Positions 2,855-55,136 of a DNA stretch of 64,000 nt are shown piece after piece. Positions within the stretch are counted from its first letter, which is position 1, and each line of letters starts with the position of its first letter. The translations under genes were made by a program, and so were the position numbers. Origin of the DNA: Escherichia phage vB_EcoM_ESCO8; sequence record OM386653.1; one strand, given 5' to 3'. The notes under the pieces were generated by a model. That model did no database searches. It worked only from the letters and a program-made list of their open reading frames with translations, and was not told the DNA's origin.

Positions 2855-3178
2855 TCAATAATCTTCAATATTTTCTACATTGACAAAAGCATGTTTATTT
2901 TCTAAGTTTTCGCCGTACCATTGCCCCATGTTGATTTCTGCGGTGCGCAACCAGGACATGCCGCGTTCTATCTTTTTGCTCGCAATGTCGATCCGGCTTT
3001 TGCATAGTGATTTAGCTTGCAATGTAAAAACACTATTGCCCTGTAATGCTTCCAGGTCATCATGTGCAAGGCGATACTCTTTAAAGCCTGATTCTATCAT
3101 TTCAATCGCATCAAGGAAACGAGCGCGATGATAGAAAAAATCAGAGTTATCCAAATAAACACCGATCACAGATTTCAT
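2855..3178 (-). CDS. hypothetical protein
   Basis: ORF track frame; start moved to internal ATG (MKSVIGV) preceded by AAAGGG RBS. Confidence 0.5.
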   Translation of the reverse strand: MKSVIGVYLDNSDFFYHRARFLDAIEMIESGFKEYRLAHDDLEALQGNSVFTLQAKSLCKSRIDIASKKIERGMSWLRTAEINMGQWYGENLENKHAFVNVENIEDY

Positions 3179-44553: not shown

Positions 44554-46326
44554 GTGTCTTATGTTGTAAATAAATATGGGTATAACATTGATCTAAGTCA
44601 AGAAGGACATACTGGGTGTCCTCGTTGTATGAAAGGAGGGCGTGATCGATCACAAAACAATTTGATGGTATATGGCTTAGATGCCGATGAAGACCATCGA
44701 GGCGCACATTGTTTTTCTTGTGGCTTTACTATCCCTGATCAAAAATGGTTAAATGCACACGGCGAAGAAATTGAAGAGGAGGATATCTTGGGTAGTGAGT
44801 TTAATCCAGAAGTACATGATAAACTAAAAGCCAGCACTGGAACTAATCCAAAAGGTTATCGCGGTATTCGTGAAGATATCTCTAAGCCTTTCGGTGTACG
44901 TTATATGTACGATGAAGCTACTGGCGAAGTAATTTCAACACTATACCCTACAACTAAAGATTACAATATTGCTGGGTATAAACAACGTATCGATCCAAAA
45001 GATTTCTCGCATCCTATCGGTGAAACAGGAAAGGATTGTGATCTTTTTGGGGAGTTTAAATATCGTAACCACAGCGGTACTATTCTAATCGTTGGTGGTG
45101 AACACGATATGCTGGCTGCAACACAGATGCTAAAAGATTATAACAAGGGTGGTAAATATCCTGTTCCTGCTGTAGTATCTGGTACTTGTGGCGAAACATC
45201 TCTGCATAAGCAGCTTCAACATCGTTATAAATTCTTAGATCAATTTAAAAAGATTGTTCTATGTATGGATAATGATGAAGCTGGACGTGCAGCAGTTGAG
45301 AAATGTGTTAAAATCTTACCACGTAATAAAGTTTACGTGATGGAACTAACGGATGTTAAAGATCCTAACCAGGCACTAGTAGAAGGAAAAATTGATCATT
45401 TTATTGATCGCTTTTTCAAAGCTAAATTGTACACACCTGCTGGTGTTTACGCTTCTAACGTACTGTATGAAGCAGCCTTGGAATGCCTGGAAGCTAAAAT
45501 GATCACCCTTCCTCCATTCATGCGTGTTGCTTCTAATATGTTAGGTGGAGGCTTGGTAGAAGAAGAAATTACTGTTATACTTGCAAAAACAAGTATCGGT
45601 AAGACACTGTTGGTTAACGAGATTACAAAGCACATTATTCTTGCACATCCAGAACATACTCTTGGTATTTTATCTTTGGAGGCAACGTATAAGAAGTATT
45701 CTCGTAACTTACTGTCTTCATTCTTGCATATCCCTCTTCACCGTAAAACGAAAGAAGAGAAGGAAAAGATTTTAAAAGATAATGAAGAAAAGATTCGTGA
45801 TTTTTACGAACGAGAAGATGGAACACCACGTTTCTATGTTTGTGATGATCGTGGAGCTAACGTAGATGTGATTAAAGAGAAGGTTCTGGAAATGATTATT
45901 TATTTCGGAGTAACCATTCTTGTTATCGACCCTTATTCTGATTTGCTTTCTGGTATGGACGTGTCACAACAAGAGGAACTTGCGACGTGGCTGAAACGCA
46001 TTATGAAAGAGTATGCAATAACCATTGTTGTAATTTCACACGTTAAAAAGTCTTCTAACAATAGTAATGAACATATTGTAGAAGATGATGCAATGGGTAG
46101 TAGCTTCCTTGCTAAAGGTGCTGGTATCACAATTGCGCTGGAGCGTGATAAACAAGCTGAAGATCCTATGGAACGTAACCGCACATATTGCTACATTCTA
46201 AAGAACCGTGAGTTCTCAGAGACTGGTGCAGCAGGTAGTTTCTTCTATGAGATTAAAACAGCTACACTTCACGATTACGATCAATACACAAGTAACCCAG
46301 AGAACATCTCTGCTGGTTCTTATTAA
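44554..46326 (+). CDS. Bifunctional DNA primase-helicase (T7 gp4-like)
   Basis: GTG start; N-terminal Zn ribbon CPRC...CFSCGF, TOPRIM-like GGEHDM and CMDNDEAGR, C-terminal helicase Walker A KTSIGKT and Walker B VIDPY. Confidence 0.8.
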   Translation: MSYVVNKYGYNIDLSQEGHTGCPRCMKGGRDRSQNNLMVYGLDADEDHRGAHCFSCGFTIPDQKWLNAHGEEIEEEDILGSEFNPEVHDKLKASTGTNPKGYRGIREDISKPFGVRYMYDEATGEVISTLYPTTKDYNIAGYKQRIDPKDFSHPIGETGKDCDLFGEFKYRNHSGTILIVGGEHDMLAATQMLKDYNKGGKYPVPAVVSGTCGETSLHKQLQHRYKFLDQFKKIVLCMDNDEAGRAAVEKCVKILPRNKVYVMELTDVKDPNQALVEGKIDHFIDRFFKAKLYTPAGVYASNVLYEAALECLEAKMITLPPFMRVASNMLGGGLVEEEITVILAKTSIGKTLLVNEITKHIILAHPEHTLGILSLEATYKKYSRNLLSSFLHIPLHRKTKEEKEKILKDNEEKIRDFYEREDGTPRFYVCDDRGANVDVIKEKVLEMIIYFGVTILVIDPYSDLLSGMDVSQQEELATWLKRIMKEYAITIVVISHVKKSSNNSNEHIVEDDAMGSSFLAKGAGITIALERDKQAEDPMERNRTYCYILKNREFSETGAAGSFFYEIKTATLHDYDQYTSNPENISAGSY

Positions 46327-46822: not shown

Positions 46823-49402
46823 ATGGGAGCTTTTACTTTCGACATTGAAAGTAACAACTTGCTTAATGACGAAAGTGTAGATTACTTGGCAAGTCCATAT
46901 CGTTTAAAAGATAGTTTTGCAATGCACTGTATTGTGTGCGAAAGTCATGATACTGGAGAGATTATTGCTTTCCATGATGGTGATAAATATCTTTTCGATG
47001 GTCGTCCGTATGTTGAGACTGACGGAAAGTATGAATACCGACTGGAGGAATATGAGCATTTAGAATATACCCATTTCCCTCTTAAAGATTTTCCTGATTT
47101 TGTAAATGGAACAGGTAAATTTAAAGGTAATTCAAACTATAAAATTACCAAAGTAGTTGGACATAACATCATTAACTTTGACTTACTGGCAATTAAATTA
47201 TTTTTTAAACTCAACTACAGTATTAAGTACAATACTTGGGGTAATAGTAACATTGAAATTTGTGATACTATGATCTTAAGTAAGACACTAAACCCTGATC
47301 GCTTCGGTGGTCATAGTCTGGCAGAGTTATCTAAGAAAGCTGGAGGGGATGTTAAAATTGATTTTAGAAAAAACATTCCTGAAACTGAAAGATTTAAAAC
47401 ATTTGCAGCAGATATGCTGTATTACTGTATTTACGATAACAAAGCTAACACCGCAGTGTTCCGTTATTTGATGGAAGAGTGGGGTGATTATAACAAGTGG
47501 TCTGAACCATTTAACTTAGAACAACGTGTAGCTGATATTATTACACGTCAAGAGCACCGTGGCTTTGCTTTCAATATGAAACAAGCAGAAGATAATATTC
47601 GTGATCTGGATGCTCGAATGGAAGCATGTCGTTTAGAGGCAGAACCTGTGCTACCTCCTAAACCTGCTACTAAAGGTTATTTGAAATCATTCATTCCACC
47701 TAAACTACAGTTTAAAAAGAATGGTGAACCTTCAAGTAACATGATAAAGTTTGCAGAGAAACATTCTGGTGAACTTGTACAAAAAGAAGATGGTTGGTGG
47801 CTATTTGCATTAGGTAAAGAGTTTAAACTACCTATTCCAGCAGAAGAACCTATTTGTGATCCTACAGTACCTGCTACTTTAGACGACACTACACATATTA
47901 AAAACTGGTTAGTTGGTTTAGGTTGGAGTCCATCTGAATATAAAGATAAAGATATCACTCTTAAATCTGGCACTAAGATTAAGAAAGATGAAGCACAAAT
48001 GGAGAAAGCTATTCGTGACTATGTTGATCAAACATTAGCATCTAACTTCTGCCAGGACAGATGTGATCATCTGGAGTGCACACCAGAAACTTTGGAATGG
48101 AAACTAAGAGATCGTATTGCTAAAGCTAAAGGTCGTGGTGTTAAAGTGCTTACGAACCCTTCCTTTACAAAAGGGCAAGAGAAAGATATTTGTCCTAACT
48201 TGGAAGCACTAGGTGAAAAGTTTCCTTATGCTACGCAGATTGTGCAGTATCTTACGTATAAACACCGTAGGAACTCTATTCTAGGGGGTGGTGCTGATTG
48301 GGAAGAAGATGAAGAGGATTACGATAAAGGTTATCTGGCAGCAGTAAGGGCTGATGGTCGTATACCAACTCCTGCTGCAACGTGTGATGCAGCTACGTCT
48401 CGTATGAAACATAGGCTAGTAGCAAATATCCCACGTGTAACATCTCTGTACGGATATGAAATGCGTAACTTATTTGGTGTAGAAGTTCCAAAATACTTCC
48501 AAATTGGTTATGACTTTGATTCTCTTGAGGCAAAAATAGAATCACACTACTGTTGGCGGTACGAGCAGGAACCACACGAATATTGTAATGCTCTGTTATT
48601 GGAAAAACCTAATGACGTTCATACAATGATGGCTCGACGTATTTCTGACACTATTGGTCGTAAGTTTGAACGAAGCCCTGCTAAATCTGTTAAGTATGGT
48701 ATTACTTATGGTGCTCAAGCTGCAAAAGTAGCAAAAACTATAGGTAGTGATATGTATACAGGACAGCTTGTATACGATGCTTTCTGGGAAGCTGCAAAAC
48801 CTCTTGCGCTTCTTAAAGAACGTCTGCATGACTTTTGGGTTAAAACAGGTAAGAAATACATTCTGGGTATTGATGGTAGGAAAGTACCTACACGATCTGC
48901 ACACGCAATACTTAACTCTCTGTTCCAGAGTGGTGGTGTTATTTGTGCAAAAAGAGCAATGGTTATCTACGACGATCTTATCGAAGAAGAAGGATTAGCT
49001 GTTGACTTTTTTGTTGATGACTGGAAAAATAAGTCATTCGTTCAACAAATGATTGCATATCACGATGAAGCACAGCTTGAAGTAACTCGTGATCTGGTGC
49101 ATTTTAAATGGTTCTCTAAAGAATCTTTAGGTTGGACTCAAGTTGATGATCCAGAAGAACAAAAGAAAATTGATAAAGAATGTTTGGATAAAGTTAATGC
49201 CTGGAAAGAAGAGGAAGAGAAACGTACTGGCAAGATTTGGGCTAACGTACATGAATCTCCGAAAGGTGGTTGGTTTACAGCCTACAGTCGTGCTGGAGAA
49301 TTAGCATCTATCGCTGTTAATAAAGCTGGTGAGTATTACAATCTTAATGTACCTCTCACTGCTGGTTACGATGTTGGTAACTCATGGGCGTCTTGTCACT
49401 GA
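46823..49402 (+). CDS. DNA polymerase, family A, with 3'-5' exonuclease domain
   Basis: 859 aa; exo I FDIESNNL; pol motif A GYDFDSLEAKI, motif B RSPAKSVKYGITYG, motif C AYHDEAQLEV. Confidence 0.85.
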   Translation: MGAFTFDIESNNLLNDESVDYLASPYRLKDSFAMHCIVCESHDTGEIIAFHDGDKYLFDGRPYVETDGKYEYRLEEYEHLEYTHFPLKDFPDFVNGTGKFKGNSNYKITKVVGHNIINFDLLAIKLFFKLNYSIKYNTWGNSNIEICDTMILSKTLNPDRFGGHSLAELSKKAGGDVKIDFRKNIPETERFKTFAADMLYYCIYDNKANTAVFRYLMEEWGDYNKWSEPFNLEQRVADIITRQEHRGFAFNMKQAEDNIRDLDARMEACRLEAEPVLPPKPATKGYLKSFIPPKLQFKKNGEPSSNMIKFAEKHSGELVQKEDGWWLFALGKEFKLPIPAEEPICDPTVPATLDDTTHIKNWLVGLGWSPSEYKDKDITLKSGTKIKKDEAQMEKAIRDYVDQTLASNFCQDRCDHLECTPETLEWKLRDRIAKAKGRGVKVLTNPSFTKGQEKDICPNLEALGEKFPYATQIVQYLTYKHRRNSILGGGADWEEDEEDYDKGYLAAVRADGRIPTPAATCDAATSRMKHRLVANIPRVTSLYGYEMRNLFGVEVPKYFQIGYDFDSLEAKIESHYCWRYEQEPHEYCNALLLEKPNDVHTMMARRISDTIGRKFERSPAKSVKYGITYGAQAAKVAKTIGSDMYTGQLVYDAFWEAAKPLALLKERLHDFWVKTGKKYILGIDGRKVPTRSAHAILNSLFQSGGVICAKRAMVIYDDLIEEEGLAVDFFVDDWKNKSFVQQMIAYHDEAQLEVTRDLVHFKWFSKESLGWTQVDDPEEQKKIDKECLDKVNAWKEEEEKRTGKIWANVHESPKGGWFTAYSRAGELASIAVNKAGEYYNLNVPLTAGYDVGNSWASCH

Positions 49403-49429: not shown

Positions 49430-50026
49430 ATGCTTACCGTATATGGTGAAGGTATTAATGATTTGGAAGGCGAGAGTACGCTACCTGGTAGTAAGAAACT
49501 AACGCCGCATTATATGAAATGGATGGCTATGTTGGGGAGGTGTTACTCCCCTTGTCAACAAGAACGTGATCCTTGTTATAATGGGGTGACGGTTTGTGAA
49601 GAATGGAAACTGTTCTCCAATTTCTACTCCTGGTTGCAAACTTGGGATAACTGGGAAAACTTAGAACTTGATAAAGATATTATAGGAGGGAGAGTTTACT
49701 CTCCCGATACCTGTCTTTTAGTAACAGGAGATCTTAACAAGTTCTTAGCTTATAGAGTAAGTAAAAGATCTCATGGGACTATGGTAGGATGTAGTTACGA
49801 AAAAGATCGTAAAAAGTATAAAGCCCATATTCAACGTGATGGACGTATTATAACGCTGGGACGTTTTAATACTGAAATTGAAGCGCATCTTTGCTGGTTG
49901 AAAGCTAAGGCAGAGCAGCTTACAAAATTCTTTGAAACTGAAGATGAAAGAGTTGTTCCACATCTTAAAGCACTATATAATGAAATGCTTGAGTATGTAG
50001 AACAACACAAAGAGTGGACACGATAG
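49430..50026 (+). CDS. AP2-domain DNA-binding protein (homing-endonuclease-associated type)
   Basis: 198 aa; GCSYEKDRKKYKAHIQRDGRIITLGRFNTEIEAH matches AP2/HNH-associated DNA-binding module; catalytic HNH motif not identified. Confidence 0.45.
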   Translation: MLTVYGEGINDLEGESTLPGSKKLTPHYMKWMAMLGRCYSPCQQERDPCYNGVTVCEEWKLFSNFYSWLQTWDNWENLELDKDIIGGRVYSPDTCLLVTGDLNKFLAYRVSKRSHGTMVGCSYEKDRKKYKAHIQRDGRIITLGRFNTEIEAHLCWLKAKAEQLTKFFETEDERVVPHLKALYNEMLEYVEQHKEWTR

Positions 50027-50034
50027 GAGAAAAT

Positions 50035-50628
50035 ATGAATATTGAAGATCAAAAAGTACGAGCTTTAGAAGTATTACGTATGTGCCAACTGGTAGATCCG
50101 TTTGCAATTGTAGCTGGCGGCGCTGTACGTGATTGGCGATTAGAGAAACCTGCGCAAGATATTGACATTTACTTGCGTATGCCTAACCACAATACACTCG
50201 TACTAGTAGAGAAATTTTTGATGTTGGGTGTTGGTGCACGTAATGTTAAACAACTTACTAAGCAAACAGAACACACTTATGCCGAACTACCACATTTGAA
50301 ATGGGTATTTGAAGCATACTATAAAGATCTTAAGTTTAACTTTATGATCATGGAAGAGGGTGTACGCAGTGAAATCGTATGGAACTTTGATGTGGCTATT
50401 TGCCTGTGTTACTGGGATGGTCAAAATTATGTATATCATCCAGACTTTGAATTTGCACTGAAAACTAATATTTGTACTATTAATCACCGATACACAGGTA
50501 AGGAAGCACACGTCCGTAAAATGGCAGAACGTTTCCCTATGTTCCGCTTTGTAAAAGACGTTTTCATTCCCAAAGAACCAGAAGTACGTACACTGGATTC
50601 ATTTAACAACGAAGAATTTAAGATTTAA
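50035..50628 (+). CDS. Nucleotidyltransferase, CCA-adding-enzyme head-domain-like
   Basis: Start ATG after AGGAG; AIVAGGAVRDWRL...DIDIY parallels GGAVRD...D.D motif of tRNA nucleotidyltransferases; only ~197 aa. Confidence 0.5.
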   Translation: MNIEDQKVRALEVLRMCQLVDPFAIVAGGAVRDWRLEKPAQDIDIYLRMPNHNTLVLVEKFLMLGVGARNVKQLTKQTEHTYAELPHLKWVFEAYYKDLKFNFMIMEEGVRSEIVWNFDVAICLCYWDGQNYVYHPDFEFALKTNICTINHRYTGKEAHVRKMAERFPMFRFVKDVFIPKEPEVRTLDSFNNEEFKI

Positions 50629-50671
50629 GTGTTGACAAACATTATAATTATGTGTTATTATGAGGACTTGA

Positions 50672-51086: not shown

Positions 51087-52034
51087 ATGCCAGTAATTAA
51101 TTCTGAAATCGACCGTCGTACTAAAAAAGAAGCATTCTGGGCTGAAGGTATCGTTGAATATGTCAAACTGGATAAGTTTGATGAAATGAAAGTCTCTTAT
51201 ATTAAGGTTGCAGGTCAGCCAGATAAGAAAATTGAATCAACTCACAAAGCATCTCTGCTTATTAAAGAGAAAGGTGCTAGTGCTGATGATAAAGGTGTTT
51301 GGGTTAGCCTAGGTGAAGTTAAACTGCATCCAGAACATGAAAACCTGCAAGTTAAAGATGGTGACAAGTGGGTTACTATCGAAAAAGGTGTAGAACTAAC
51401 TATGGATGTTAAACCTTCTGAATGGAATGGCAAAACATACTACAATTCCTCTAAAGGTAAAATCACTATTCTTTCAACAGAAGGTGTTCAGCAAGCACAA
51501 TCTTCTTCAAAAGGTGGAAATAAGCCATCTAATAACGAAGGTAGCAAGCCTAACTACAAAAAACGTGATACCGTAGGGATTGAAACAGGACACGCTGTAA
51601 ACGGCGCTCTGGAGCTTCTACGTGCTGGTGTGAAAGGTGATGCTTTCGACTTGGCTGGTGTGGTACAATCTGCAACTGTTACTCTGAAAGCAGAAATTGC
51701 TAAAGATCGTGGCGTTGATGTGACTGACTATGATCTTGGTGCTTCAGTTGGACACGCAATTCTTAACGCTTGTCGTGATCATACAGGTAAAACTGTAACG
51801 GCAGAAGAGATTATTGAAGCTGCTCGTGAAGTTCTTGCTTTGTCTGATAAAGTAGCTGCTGCTATCCGTGGAATGTCTACCCCAGTACAAGAAGTTAAGA
51901 AAGAAACTAAAAAAGTAGAGAAGAAAGAGCCAGCACCGAAAGAACCAGAACCTGTTGTTCAAGATTTCGATGATGATATCCCATTTGCTCCTATTGGTTT
52001 GCAGTATGGTCGAAACTTCCTGCACTGTTTCTAA
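51087..52034 (+). CDS. SSB-like protein with internal DFDDDIPF motif
   Basis: 315 aa; DFDDDIPF (E. coli SSB C-terminal tip) located 15 residues before C-terminus; context among replication genes. Confidence 0.45.
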   Translation: MPVINSEIDRRTKKEAFWAEGIVEYVKLDKFDEMKVSYIKVAGQPDKKIESTHKASLLIKEKGASADDKGVWVSLGEVKLHPEHENLQVKDGDKWVTIEKGVELTMDVKPSEWNGKTYYNSSKGKITILSTEGVQQAQSSSKGGNKPSNNEGSKPNYKKRDTVGIETGHAVNGALELLRAGVKGDAFDLAGVVQSATVTLKAEIAKDRGVDVTDYDLGASVGHAILNACRDHTGKTVTAEEIIEAAREVLALSDKVAAAIRGMSTPVQEVKKETKKVEKKEPAPKEPEPVVQDFDDDIPFAPIGLQYGRNFLHCF

Positions 52035-52094: not shown

Positions 52095-52826
52095 ATGAGC
52101 GAATTTGTAAACAACACCGCGTTAAACTACCTGCAAACCCTCGAAAGCAATAGTGTAGATTTGATTCTTACTGACCCACCATATGCTATTTCTCGTGACA
52201 CAAATTTTCAATCTGGAGAGCCTACTGGAAAAGATACAGATAGATTCCGTGTATCTTACAACTTTGGGGATTGGGATGTTGTAGATATTCCTTACTTTAA
52301 AGAAGTATTCAAAGAAGCCTATAGGGTGCTTAGAAAAGGTGGTACTTGCATAGTTTGGTATGATATCTGGAAGATCCAGGAGCTACGTGAAATCCTTGAA
52401 CCGCTTGGTTTTCGTATGTTCCGTACTATTGAATGGATTAAAACAAACCCTGTACCCATCAACAGTGGTGTTAACTACCTTAGTAACGCTAAAGAGATGG
52501 CTATTGTTTGTGTTAAAGGTTCTAAGCCAACCTTCAATGCCTCCTACCACAAGGGTGTGTTTGAGTATCCTATCTATCAAGGAGCAGATCGTTTTCATCC
52601 GACACAAAAACACTTGACTTTGTTTTGTGACCTTATTAATATACATACCAACGAAGGAGATGTAGTCTTAGACTTCTTCTCTGGAAGTGCAACAACACAA
52701 GTTGCGGCACTTTTAACAGGTAGAGAATACTTAGGCTGTGAAGCCGATGTAAATATTTTTAAGCAAGCGGAGGAACGACTAAATGAGTACACTGAACAGC
52801 AAAATCACCCTGAAAGCACTGATTAA
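52095..52826 (+). CDS. DNA methyltransferase, beta-class amino-MTase (N6A or N4C)
   Basis: 243 aa; motif IV LILTDPPYAI near N-terminus, motif I DFFSGSATT near C-terminus (beta-class order). Confidence 0.7.
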   Translation: MSEFVNNTALNYLQTLESNSVDLILTDPPYAISRDTNFQSGEPTGKDTDRFRVSYNFGDWDVVDIPYFKEVFKEAYRVLRKGGTCIVWYDIWKIQELREILEPLGFRMFRTIEWIKTNPVPINSGVNYLSNAKEMAIVCVKGSKPTFNASYHKGVFEYPIYQGADRFHPTQKHLTLFCDLINIHTNEGDVVLDFFSGSATTQVAALLTGREYLGCEADVNIFKQAEERLNEYTEQQNHPESTD

Positions 52827-53214
52827 CAACGGTATGAACCTGGACTCTGGTCTGTCTCCAAAGATTTCTATGGCACGACTAGAACAAGTTACTGGTCTTC
52901 GTCAAGTAAGTAATGGCGGTAAGATTATTCGTGATGACGCTGTACCTTTTAATAAATTTCAGATTGAACGTCATTACGATCCTGTAACTGCAAGTCTCAC
53001 TGGTGTAACTTTCTCAGGTTATCGTACTGCCGGATACCAACGTAAGGTTGTAGCTGAACGTATTAAAAATCGCAAACAGAAAATTGCAACATTGAAGAAA
53101 CTAGTAGAGAAAGATGTTTCAGAACTTCTTAACCTGTATGAAACTCTTGAGACAAAAGGTGAAGATCATAAACTCTTCTCTAAAGAAGATGTGAGCGTAA
53201 TTTTCACTGATTAA
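52783..53214 (+). CDS. hypothetical protein (start uncertain)
   Basis: ORF track 143 aa; overlaps MTase 3' end by 44 nt, later ATG possible. Confidence 0.4.
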   Translation: MSTLNSKITLKALINNGMNLDSGLSPKISMARLEQVTGLRQVSNGGKIIRDDAVPFNKFQIERHYDPVTASLTGVTFSGYRTAGYQRKVVAERIKNRKQKIATLKKLVEKDVSELLNLYETLETKGEDHKLFSKEDVSVIFTD

Positions 53215-53223
53215 GATAAAAGA

Positions 53224-53248
53224 AAAGGAGCCTATTGGCTCCTTTTTG
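53224..53248. terminator. Bidirectional terminator between convergent genes
   Basis: AAAAGGAGCC-tatt-GGCTCCTTTT with T/A runs both sides. Confidence 0.65.
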
Positions 53249-53249
53249 T

Positions 53250-55136
53250 TTATGTAACATTGACTGTAAATCTGACAAGAGGTGATAACACGTCATTATC
53301 AGCATCATAGTGTGCAACATCAAACACTGCTGTACCTGCTGCAAACCCGTATTGTTCAACCTGATCTGCATAAGTAAATGTGTAAGTGTTAGTATCAAGA
53401 GTTTGTTCTGTAAGAATTGCTGCTGTGAGGACGTTTACATTTCGGAAGTAATGTTTGGTATATCCTGCTGGTTCCCAAGAAATAATTGCATCTTGGTTAG
53501 CTTGTCTTACAGCGGCTCCTCCTGTTGGAACAGACATATCAACCCAAACAGGTGGTGTTGATGTTAAATCTGTACCGTCTGCTGCTGATTTAGCAAGTTT
53601 TGTAGCTGCTGTTTGATATACAGAAGAAATATAATGGATACGACCATCAATACCTTCTTCATAAACATAACCACTGTAACGTTCAGCACCATCTACCCAA
53701 GAACCAATGATAACATCATCACGTGCTGTAGAGATGGTTCTTTGTACATTTCTGTACTTCTGCCAATCCACACCATTAACTTCTACACCATATAAATAAG
53801 AACGTCCTAGGATCTGCCAAACAATTTTTGCTTGAGAAGCAGGAACTATTGTACGCATCTTATCAAAGATAGCTATCGTAGCATCATGGTAACGTGTAGT
53901 GTTACTGTACCTACCTGCAACAGTCGAAGATGCTGATACAGCATCATTTTCACCTTGTCCCCAAATAATTGCTTTAACCTTACTTGCATAAGGTGTGACT
54001 TTAGTGATAAAGTTAGTTAAGCATGGCCCATCTGCTGTGTTATCCAGATCATACCAGTAGTTGTCTGGTGTACCTGTTCCAGCTTTATCGTCAGCATATT
54101 TATCTGCTGCTGATGATCCAGAAGCTGTATTTAACGGAAGAACTTCAGCATTTGCTAAACCACGTTGCGTAGCATATGCATTACGGGTTGTTGTGCTACT
54201 CATTACTGCTTTATTTGCACCAGATAATTCTGTAAAGTGTGCATTTACGTTATCTTGTCCAGCAAAGACAATAACTTCTTTAATGAACGAATCATCTGTA
54301 GCTATTGAGTTATTAAAGATAACGGCTGCTGCTTTGGTGCTCTTAACGCTAATTTTAAGGTATGTTGGAGCAAACCCATAAAGAGGAATAGAGTCAGAGA
54401 TATCAAAGTAAGCGTAAGTATTCGTGGTTGTTGTAGTCCACTGAACACTATTATCACTTAAATCTAATACTTCTACAGTATAAGTATCACCGTCTAGTGG
54501 ATCAGTTACATCCCAAGCAACACGAACGTCTCCATAACTGTTTGCCACGGCTGTTACATTAGAAATAACAGGAATAGCATTAACACCTAAATAAGAACTA
54601 TCAGAGGCCACAACTGTTCCTTGATACGTTGCAGTACAACCTATACGGCAATTGCCATCTTTAAGAGCAGTTATTAATCCTGTAGGGCTTACAGTAGCTA
54701 CTTCTGGATCTGTTGTGGTGTATGTAATTACCATATCTGGAAGGTCTTTAGCACCTTCTGGACTGATTGTAGCAACCAACTGTTGAGTAGTGCCTACATC
54801 CATAGCCGATAGACTTTCAGTGTACACACTTAATTCTGAAGCATAACCACCAGATTGATCAGTTAAGACAGCACCTAAATTATTTTTAGCTGTCATTATT
54901 GCATCAAAACCACCTTCAGCAACAAACTCCATCATACCATTATTATCTATAACCATTTTGGTATTATCTGAAGATGAAAAAGCTATATCAAATAACGCAC
55001 CATCTTCGGGTGTAACTGTATATGTCAGTTGTTTTTTACTACCAACTATTGCAATGCCAATAGAGGAAGTGGTTATAGATGTAGCTGTTACTACTGAAGC
55101 TGATGTTGTTGACATAAATAAAGGAATAGGATACAT
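53250..55136 (-). CDS. Tail fiber / receptor-binding protein with Ig-like (Big_2) domains and SASA-type carbohydrate esterase domain
   Basis: 628 aa; Big_2-like ATVSPTGLITALKDGNCRIGCTA; esterase-like motifs IVFAGQDNVNAH and IIWGQGENDA. Confidence 0.55.
   Translation of the reverse strand: MYPIPLFMSTTSASVVTATSITTSSIGIAIVGSKKQLTYTVTPEDGALFDIAFSSSDNTKMVIDNNGMMEFVAEGGFDAIMTAKNNLGAVLTDQSGGYASELSVYTESLSAMDVGTTQQLVATISPEGAKDLPDMVITYTTTDPEVATVSPTGLITALKDGNCRIGCTATYQGTVVASDSSYLGVNAIPVISNVTAVANSYGDVRVAWDVTDPLDGDTYTVEVLDLSDNSVQWTTTTTNTYAYFDISDSIPLYGFAPTYLKISVKSTKAAAVIFNNSIATDDSFIKEVIVFAGQDNVNAHFTELSGANKAVMSSTTTRNAYATQRGLANAEVLPLNTASGSSAADKYADDKAGTGTPDNYWYDLDNTADGPCLTNFITKVTPYASKVKAIIWGQGENDAVSASSTVAGRYSNTTRYHDATIAIFDKMRTIVPASQAKIVWQILGRSYLYGVEVNGVDWQKYRNVQRTISTARDDVIIGSWVDGAERYSGYVYEEGIDGRIHYISSVYQTAATKLAKSAADGTDLTSTPPVWVDMSVPTGGAAVRQANQDAIISWEPAGYTKHYFRNVNVLTAAILTEQTLDTNTYTFTYADQVEQYGFAAGTAVFDVAHYDADNDVLSPLVRFTVNVT

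Follow-up and report, generated by a model that had tools for sequence, protein, structure and literature searches.

Introduction

Gad2 (Gabija anti-defence protein 2) of Bacillus phage SPbetaL7 is a predicted nucleotidyltransferase of 400 aa. Knockout of gad2 renders SPbetaL7 sensitive to Gabija, the protein is toxic when expressed, and a 394-aa homologue from Brevibacillus also inhibits Gabija (Yirmiya et al., bioRxiv 10.1101/2023.05.01.538930 / Nature 2024). Gad2 is one of few anti-defence proteins predicted to act enzymatically, and as of February 2026 its mechanism was still described as 'yet to be elucidated' (PMC12904381). Gabija has been described as a nucleotide-sensing nuclease (PMC12904381) and also as acting on RecBCD-free DNA ends, the latter in a 2025 preprint that makes no mention of Gad2 (bioRxiv 10.1101/2025.08.30.673261). 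The BASEL papers contain no Gabija data for phi92-like phages.

The gene considered here lies in a 64,000-nucleotide stretch of DNA from Escherichia phage vB_EcoM_ESCO8 (OM386653.1), referred to below as the window. The source phage is a phi92-like E. coli myovirus of the genus Justusliebigvirus and is 99% identical to phage alia. A preliminary description of the window had pointed to an open reading frame among replication genes with GGAVRD and DIDIY near the N-terminus of its product, and had put the length of the product at about 197 aa, or roughly half that of cellular CCA-adding enzymes. These features were all confirmed. The ORF list and the sequence agree on a real reading frame on the plus strand with an ATG start that encodes 197 aa; GGAVRD occupies residues 28-33 and DIDIY residues 42-46 (DID, 42-44); the full-length phage and E. 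coli CCA enzymes have 397-422 aa; and genes for a primase-helicase and a family-A DNA polymerase are nearby. The 197-aa protein, hereafter the short NTase, is 100% identical in several deposited phages, is named 'nucleotidyltransferase' in RefSeq and was found in hundreds of public sequencing samples.

Sequence features of the short NTase

A homologue search with the single sequence returned only 2 clusters, and a seed alignment built from tblastn matches in phage genomes was needed to obtain the family alignment of 79 sequences from which conservation was read. The features of the gene, its product and its immediate surroundings are listed in Table 1.

Table 1. Coordinates of the short NTase gene, of features of its product and of neighbouring elements in the window.
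Feature	Coordinates	Strand	Remarks
DnaB/Toprim primase-helicase	44554-46326		replication gene upstream
Family-A DNA polymerase	46823-49402		PF00476
HNH endonuclease	49430-50026		phrog_953
Ribosome-binding site AGGAG	50025..50029	+	5 nt 5' of ATG; read from the sequence
CDS, Gad2-family nucleotidyltransferase, 197 aa, including stop codon	50035..50628	+	ORF list, sequence, phrog_1614, PF26128 tag
Motif A, A27-G-G-A-V-R-D-W34 ... D42-I-D44-I-Y46	50113..50172	+	glycine turn and two metal-binding aspartates
E93, candidate third acidic active-site residue, strand 88-96	50311..50313	+	E in 74/79; strand from model
N102-F-M104-I-M106 strand, family consensus Q-x-M-x-M	50338..50352	+	family alignment
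F118-D119, counterpart of Gad2 F-D(-F-T), positional counterpart of class II motif B (RRDFT)	50386..50391	+	
Helix 158-166 and P168 (A-H-V-R-K162-M-A-E-R-F-P168)	50506..50538	+	helix from model
Variable, low-confidence C-terminal tail, residues 176-197	50560..50625	+	pLDDT ~60 at 181-197; tails of relatives vary widely
Sigma-70-like promoter, TTGACA-18-TATTAT, extended -10 TG	50632..50661	+	promoter scan, 11/12 matches; consensus match only

Motif A was present in 76 of the 79 family members, and its residues A27, G28, G29, W34, D42, D44 and Y46 were invariant in the alignment. With G28, G29, D42 and D44 invariant and E93 conserved as noted in Table 1, the short NTase is a stand-alone nucleotidyltransferase that is predicted from its sequence to be catalytically competent; by the usual Pol-beta pattern, E93 would have a catalytic role. 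Further into the protein, M104 was invariant, while M106 was kept in 76 members and Q or N at position 102 in 77. F118 was found in 72/79, whereas D119 was confined to nine members, the Stephanstirmvirinae subgroup, and was replaced by G in 49. H or Y occupied position 159 in every member, and K162 and P168 were present in 77 and 73 members, respectively. The helix that carries K162 is probably the positional counterpart of the first neck helix of CCA enzymes, on which those enzymes bear an EDxxR motif that is itself missing here. The correspondences drawn to motifs B and D rest on the order of secondary structure elements and on a weak alignment between Gad2 and class II enzymes.

Relationship to Gad2

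There is little doubt that the short NTase belongs to the phage Gad2 family (PF26128, PHROG 1614), of which it is a new short member, already annotated publicly and included in the curated Pfam family. The exact 197-aa sequence carries a precomputed, unmarked PF26128 'Gad2' tag at E<=1e-5, as does its 99%-identical cluster, and authentic Gad2 proteins all carry this tag. The match to phrog_1614 ('nucleotidyltransferase') extended over residues 7-193 with an E value of 2e-34; SPbetaL7 Gad2 matches the same PHROG over residues 26-118. Gad2 sequences for closer comparison were taken from Supplementary Table 10 of bioRxiv 10.1101/2023.05.01.538930 and from the SPbetaL7 record (WIT28108.1). Against nine homologues from the Gad2 list of Yirmiya et al., hhalign gave the family a probability of 96.8% and an E value of 2.3e-10 over 154 columns, residues 11-187 of the short NTase being paired with Gad2 residues 16-173. 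The corresponding values were 88.6% (E 2.6e-6, 133 columns) for SPbetaL7 Gad2 and 84.6% (E 6.8e-6) for the verified Brevibacillus Gad2, which was also matched by BLASTP (E 1e-5, 24% identity over 117 aa).

The likeness between the short NTase and SPbetaL7 Gad2 (ORF159, WIT28108.1) includes, besides the PF26128 tag, a significant profile-profile match that spans the entire NTase core and a phage origin, the motif AGG...(N)DxDxY/F, a Q-containing strand ('iQlIhF') and F-D-x-(T/A)-x-C. The Gad2 core residues present in the short NTase are AGG at 27-29, D42 and D44, and F118-D119-V-A, in which A replaces the T of F-D-x-T. Comparison of two AlphaFold models indicated the same order of secondary structure elements up to a beta-hairpin; in the model of a 400-aa B. 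subtilis Gad2, the shared order covers about the first 125 residues.

The differences are also considerable. Identity is about 21-24% and is confined to the N-terminal 150-170 residues, and the two proteins fall into different PHROGs, 1614 for the short NTase and 18122/4400 for Gad2. With 197 as opposed to 400 aa, the short NTase lacks about 230 C-terminal residues of validated Gad2, including the extended helical region and the beta-rich domain that occupies residues ~250-400 in the AlphaFold model of the latter. The third acidic candidate differs as well, E93 being conserved in the short NTase family but not in Gad2, and the invariant D of Gad2 (FDFT) being G in most members of the family. 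Finally, the short NTase is encoded in the replication module of a Gram-negative myovirus and Gad2 in the anti-Gabija locus of SPbeta. The homologue list of Yirmiya et al. does, however, include short forms of 214, 228 and 278 aa, so that the C-terminal domain is not universal among the homologues listed.

Similarity between Gad2 and class II enzymes was barely detectable (E 0.01). The alignment nevertheless placed FDFTV of Gad2 against RRDFTIN and YPIxSxLRVxKY against EDPLRxLRxxRF, and because so weak an alignment is still a sensible one, the Gad2 clade appears to be a divergent offshoot of the class II fold.

Predicted structure

The AlphaFold2 model of the short NTase, computed from the 79-sequence alignment (pLDDT 89.5, pTM 0.83), has a single neck helix and then a short strand as its last elements. 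When the model was compared with the PDB by Foldseek, the top 45 matches, with E values down to 6e-6, were all class II CCA-adding or A-adding enzymes or bacterial poly(A) polymerase. As modelled, the protein is the head domain, together with the first neck elements, of the class II CCA-adding enzyme/poly(A) polymerase fold. The structural idea of the preliminary description, a truncated nucleotidyltransferase resembling CCA-adding enzymes, was therefore right as regards the class II head fold, the top matches being without exception class II enzymes, and as regards motif A; the likeness did not extend to motifs B and D or to the body and tail domains, which are missing.

Proteins of similar size and fold occur elsewhere. 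Many small phage proteins in the BFVD have the same fold, among them ORF223 of ICP1 and proteins of T7-like Pectobacterium and Dickeya phages. The T7-like 'tRNA nucleotidyltransferases' (Pectobacterium phages PP2, PP47 and DU_PP_II, Dickeya phage Ninurta and gp22 of Pseudomonas phage Emajogi) have 167-190 aa and matched the short NTase by Foldseek at E values of 3e-8 to 2e-7. They are encoded beside primase/helicase and DNA polymerase genes, and some phages have homologues of Emajogi gp22 with a Gad2-family annotation. They differ from the short NTase in having no tblastn match to it at E<=1e-5 and a structure-based identity of only about 16-19%. A bacterial counterpart is the stand-alone 191-aa 'CCA-adding enzyme head domain' protein NP_344798.1 of S. 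pneumoniae (PDB 2LA3), which has 9% identity to the short NTase and was not retrieved when sequences were searched with the profile of the family or with that of Gad2.

Comparison with CCA-adding enzymes

In the preliminary description it was also suggested that the product might repair tRNA 3' ends, as would a minimal CCA-adding enzyme that restored CCA ends damaged by host nucleases. The structural matches noted above and the conservation of motif A speak for such a role, as does the annotation of Phapecoctavirus homologues as 'putative tRNA nucleotidyl transferase / poly(A) polymerase'. The results of profile searches and the motifs beyond motif A speak against it. The search with the PolyA_pol HMM (PF01743) that had been proposed as a check gave 19.1 bits for the short NTase, below the gathering score of 23, over residues 26-81 only, and the threshold of this model was reached by none of the 79 family members. 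NCBIfam CCA models gave 14-15 bits against cut-offs above 280. Local searches of Pfam (a copy without PF26128), NCBIfam, PADLOC and PDB sequences returned nothing significant; the sub-threshold PolyA_pol and CCA matches in these scans were limited to motif A. By hhalign, the alignment of the family with a profile of six class II sequences (32% probability) comprised 26 columns and was limited to motif A; that with E. coli Cca alone was again confined to motif A, opposite Cca residues 4-26.

The six reference enzymes were E. coli Cca, three full-length phage enzymes (PVP-SE1 gp159, 417 aa; FIfi106, 422 aa; Myrna gp28, 397 aa) and two truncated ones (phi4:1 gp032, 244 aa; Racecar gp185, 250 aa). 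All six, including the truncated enzymes of 244-250 aa, keep GGxxR...DxD, DLxRRDFTxNA and EDPLRxLRxxRF, and four of them keep the ERxxxE pattern. In contrast, the RRD of motif B, which serves ribose recognition, was found in 0/79 family members compared with 6/6 references; the positional counterpart of RRD(F/L)T(I/V)NA in the short NTase reads W-N-F-D-V-A-I-C. Motif D (EDxxR), whose residues serve as the template for CTP and ATP and which is again present in 6/6 references, occurred in eight of the 79 members at scattered, non-aligned places, and the helix at residues 158-166 reads AHVRKMAER. Motif E is not present in the short NTase, and the tRNA-binding body and tail domains are missing, as judged from the model and the length. 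Compared with class II CCA-adding enzymes and PAP I (PF01743; PDB 3AQL, 4WBY and 1MIV), the protein is thus without motifs B, D and E, body and tail at about half the length. Given the absence of RRD, EDxxR, body and tail, canonical protein-templated synthesis of CCA on tRNA is not expected; judged from the sequence, the missing RRD and EDxxR in particular speak against a templated synthesis of CCA.

Genuine phage CCA enzymes form a distinct group. A tblastn search with residues 1-240 of E. coli Cca matched 492 phage records at 30-56% identity; these enzymes belong to separate PHROGs (phrog_2244/24229) and touch phrog_1614 through motif A only. Three phages, Klebsiella KpS11, Erwinia pEa_SNUABM_50 and Yersinia fHe-Yen9-04, have a Gad2-type gene and, at another locus, a gene for a genuine tRNA nucleotidyltransferase, which indicates that the two are not redundant and counts further against tRNA repair by the former.

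Other evidence on tRNA repair came from gene content. No tRNA genes were found in the 64-kb window. Phage alia (NC_052655.1) has 15 tRNA genes which, together with a pair of RNA ligase and phosphoesterase genes, amount to an investment in tRNA biology, and one distant family member lies 3 kb from genes for an Rnl1-type RNA ligase and a kinase/HD protein. However, all 15 alia tRNA genes encode the 3' CCA; no other Cca homologue was found in this phage; and the 8-kb stretches examined around the family members of ICP1 and of a 46.9-kb Vibrio podovirus contain no annotated tRNA gene. On balance, we consider tRNA 3'-end repair very unlikely.

Several other genes of alia were noted. The RNA ligase gene adjoins the phosphoesterase gene; ribose-phosphate pyrophosphokinase and nicotinamide phosphoribosyltransferase genes form a candidate NAD+-salvage pair; and genes for a Sir2-like protein and four consecutive glycosyltransferases are present. 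In a study of Erwinia phages, gad2 and NARP2 were in perfect co-occurrence (PMC13480210).

Distribution of the family

A HMMER scan of 1.84 billion representative sequences gave 2,372 matches at E<=1e-3, of which 207 reached E<=1e-30. Almost all are stand-alone proteins of 175-230 aa, and a few have N-terminal extensions. The family is phage-borne and very widespread, and its members are encoded in early or replication regions, together with other anti-defence genes.

Some variation was seen among members. The homologue in Vibrio phage ICP1, gp223 (L004:3959-4375), has 139 aa and ends after the core beta-sheet, and in several ICP1 and JSF records the NTase-matching stretch falls on two annotated ORFs; the ICP1 lineage may have a truncated or split form of the gene. 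C-terminal tips were found to be of several kinds. Several relatives (L002:3974-4564, L003:3923-4603, L009:3995-4615) end in acidic, proline-aromatic tips (EEDDIPW, DEDIPW, PKDIPW), other NTase subgroups end in SLPFWFG, and some Gad2 homologues end in KPIF, VPIF or PYPWF; these tips are similar to docking peptides of the SSB-tip kind. Mimicry of the SSB tip, with docking to the replisome through the C-terminus, was considered as a general feature of the family and rejected: tails are variable, such tips are limited to subgroups and the short NTase is without one.

Possible function in counter-defence

The best overall explanation of these findings is that the Gad2-family NTase is a counter-defence enzyme, a reading for and against which we see the balance as about even. 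By analogy, the short NTase itself may be an anti-defence enzyme like its distant relative Gad2, to which we assign a likelihood of one half or somewhat less, and its target would then be Gabija or a related system. Counter-defence is likelier than tRNA repair because the founding member of the Gad2 family blocks Gabija, and the nearest characterised relative, anti-Gabija Gad2, is in keeping both with counter-defence and with the second possibility raised in the preliminary description, an action on some other end of RNA or DNA. Counting against counter-defence are the lengths of the two validated Gad2 proteins, both about 400 aa, and the local context, which is a replication module and not an anti-defence island. 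If Gabija is recognised through the C-terminal domain of Gad2, the short form may have a different activity.

As a counter-defence enzyme, the short NTase would be expressed at the middle stage and would act catalytically to disarm a nuclease-helicase system of the host, for instance Gabija. Its GG...DxD centre, with two Mg2+ ions, would take a nucleotide from an NTP (or perhaps a dNTP) and attach it to an acceptor hydroxyl, a Mg2+-dependent reaction for which the most likely acceptor, given the fold, would be a nucleic-acid 3' end. Speculatively, such a reaction could interfere with the nucleotide-sensing or the DNA-end mode of Gabija. Since the mechanism of Gad2 itself is unsolved, the statement that the short NTase works like Gad2 does not yet specify a chemistry. 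A more particular version, which seems to us unlikely, is that the 197-aa core is a self-sufficient anti-defence enzyme that blinds nuclease-helicase systems such as Gabija, whether they sense DNA ends or nucleotides, either by adding untemplated (deoxy)nucleotides to phage DNA 3' ends or by making a nucleotide product. The ribose-discriminating RRD and the base-templating EDxxR would then have been lost, and the C-terminal domain of Bacillus Gad2 would be accessory.

Toxin-like shutoff of the host, in which the enzyme would nucleotidylate host tRNA or other RNA and arrest translation by a MenT-like logic, was also weighed and appears highly unlikely. Membership of the defence or toxin NTases (MNT, MenT, CD-NTase) was indicated neither by a PADLOC model match nor by close structural similarity, the similarity to MenT being much weaker than that to class II enzymes, and toxicity on over-expression, as reported for Gad2, is common and non-specific.

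The finding is otherwise ordinary, and its value, which is modest, lies mainly in a potential minimal model for the mechanism of Gad2. Should the short form prove active against Gabija, its 197 aa would be convenient for the study of Gad2 chemistry, the protein being small, of high-confidence predicted fold and from a cultivable E. coli phage. The labels 'tRNA nucleotidyltransferase' and 'poly(A) polymerase' on phage proteins of about 170-230 aa rest on motif A and fold alone, and the 79 family members examined are without the motifs that define CCA enzymes. If the reading based on untemplated addition were true, the annotation 'tRNA nucleotidyltransferase' would be wrong for thousands of small phage proteins.

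Genome setting and neighbouring genes

The short NTase gene is situated between the genes for family-A DNA polymerase and HNH endonuclease on one side and a DNA methyltransferase gene on the other. Downstream are ORFs assigned to phrog_16560 and phrog_4477, neither with an assigned function, followed by the N6/N4 DNA methyltransferase gene. The order DNA polymerase, NTase, 132-aa ORF and 315-aa ORF is kept in Stephanstirmvirinae and in one Pseudomonas phage; elsewhere the neighbours vary and include genes for methyltransferase, DNA ligase, NAPRTase, RNA ligase and nrdB. No conserved functional partner was found in the gene neighbourhoods of distant family members and, the linkage breaking down outside Stephanstirmvirinae, there is no universal partner gene. 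The promoter-like site listed in Table 1, the best in 7 kb, lies directly 3' of the stop codon of the NTase gene, and 10 nt separate it from the start region of the next ORF. From this position of the strongest promoter, it would appear that the NTase gene closes the polymerase transcription unit and that the next ORF opens another.

The setting bears on the possibility that the enzyme is an accessory of replication or transcription unrelated to defence, which would, without a template, tail RNA (poly(A)-like, as a mark on transcripts of the host or the phage) or, in the course of phage DNA metabolism, the 3' ends of DNA (in the manner of terminal transferase). The location of the gene beside that of the polymerase is in keeping with such a function, but the linkage to replication genes is lost outside Stephanstirmvirinae, the strong promoter separates the NTase gene from those downstream, and the only experimental phenotype in PF26128 is anti-defence. 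We therefore regard a role of this kind as rather unlikely. T7-like replication modules also hold known anti-defence genes, so that genomic position alone does not discriminate between an accessory of replication and the counter-defence enzyme that we favour.

A part in a DNA or nucleotide modification pathway, in which the enzyme would activate or attach a nucleotide-linked moiety, may be considered from the same neighbourhoods. Methyltransferase genes flank the NTase gene here and in one Vibrio-type contig, the four glycosyltransferase genes of alia lie beyond the primase-helicase gene, and the BASEL authors speculated on a modification role for a Gordonclarkvirinae nucleotidyltransferase encoded with a dCTP deaminase among replication genes (PMC11990801). 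Against this, no modification enzyme co-occurs with the NTase in a conserved manner across the family, and the fold is that of polynucleotide 3'-end NTases and not of sugar-nucleotidyl or HIGH-type transferases. Participation in DNA modification is accordingly judged highly improbable.

Further observations were made on individual neighbours. The HNH endonuclease gene between the polymerase and NTase genes is present also in alia but is missing from a collinear contig (L026), in which the polymerase gene ends at 2863 and the NTase gene starts at 3001; in Klebsiella phage FKP3, an HNH endonuclease gene is found upstream of the polymerase gene instead. The gene in the window looks like that of a mobile homing endonuclease. 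The 315-aa ORF at 51087-52034 (phrog_4477), for which no Pfam match was obtained, encodes the sequence DFDDDIPF some 20 residues from the C-terminus of its product; this sequence copies the C-terminal tip of bacterial SSB. A single-stranded DNA-binding protein, plausibly the product of this ORF, is annotated within the matched 3-kb stretch of ESCO9, and the 315-aa protein may be a phage SSB or an SSB-tip mimic. A 143-aa ORF on the plus strand (52783-53214, phrog_20244) shares 44 nt with the 3' end of the DNA methyltransferase gene, which is read in a different frame. Between this ORF and the convergent gene for a 628-aa Big_2-type tail protein (53250-55136, minus strand), a GC-rich hairpin at 53222-53247 with T-runs on both strands forms a bidirectional terminator-like site.
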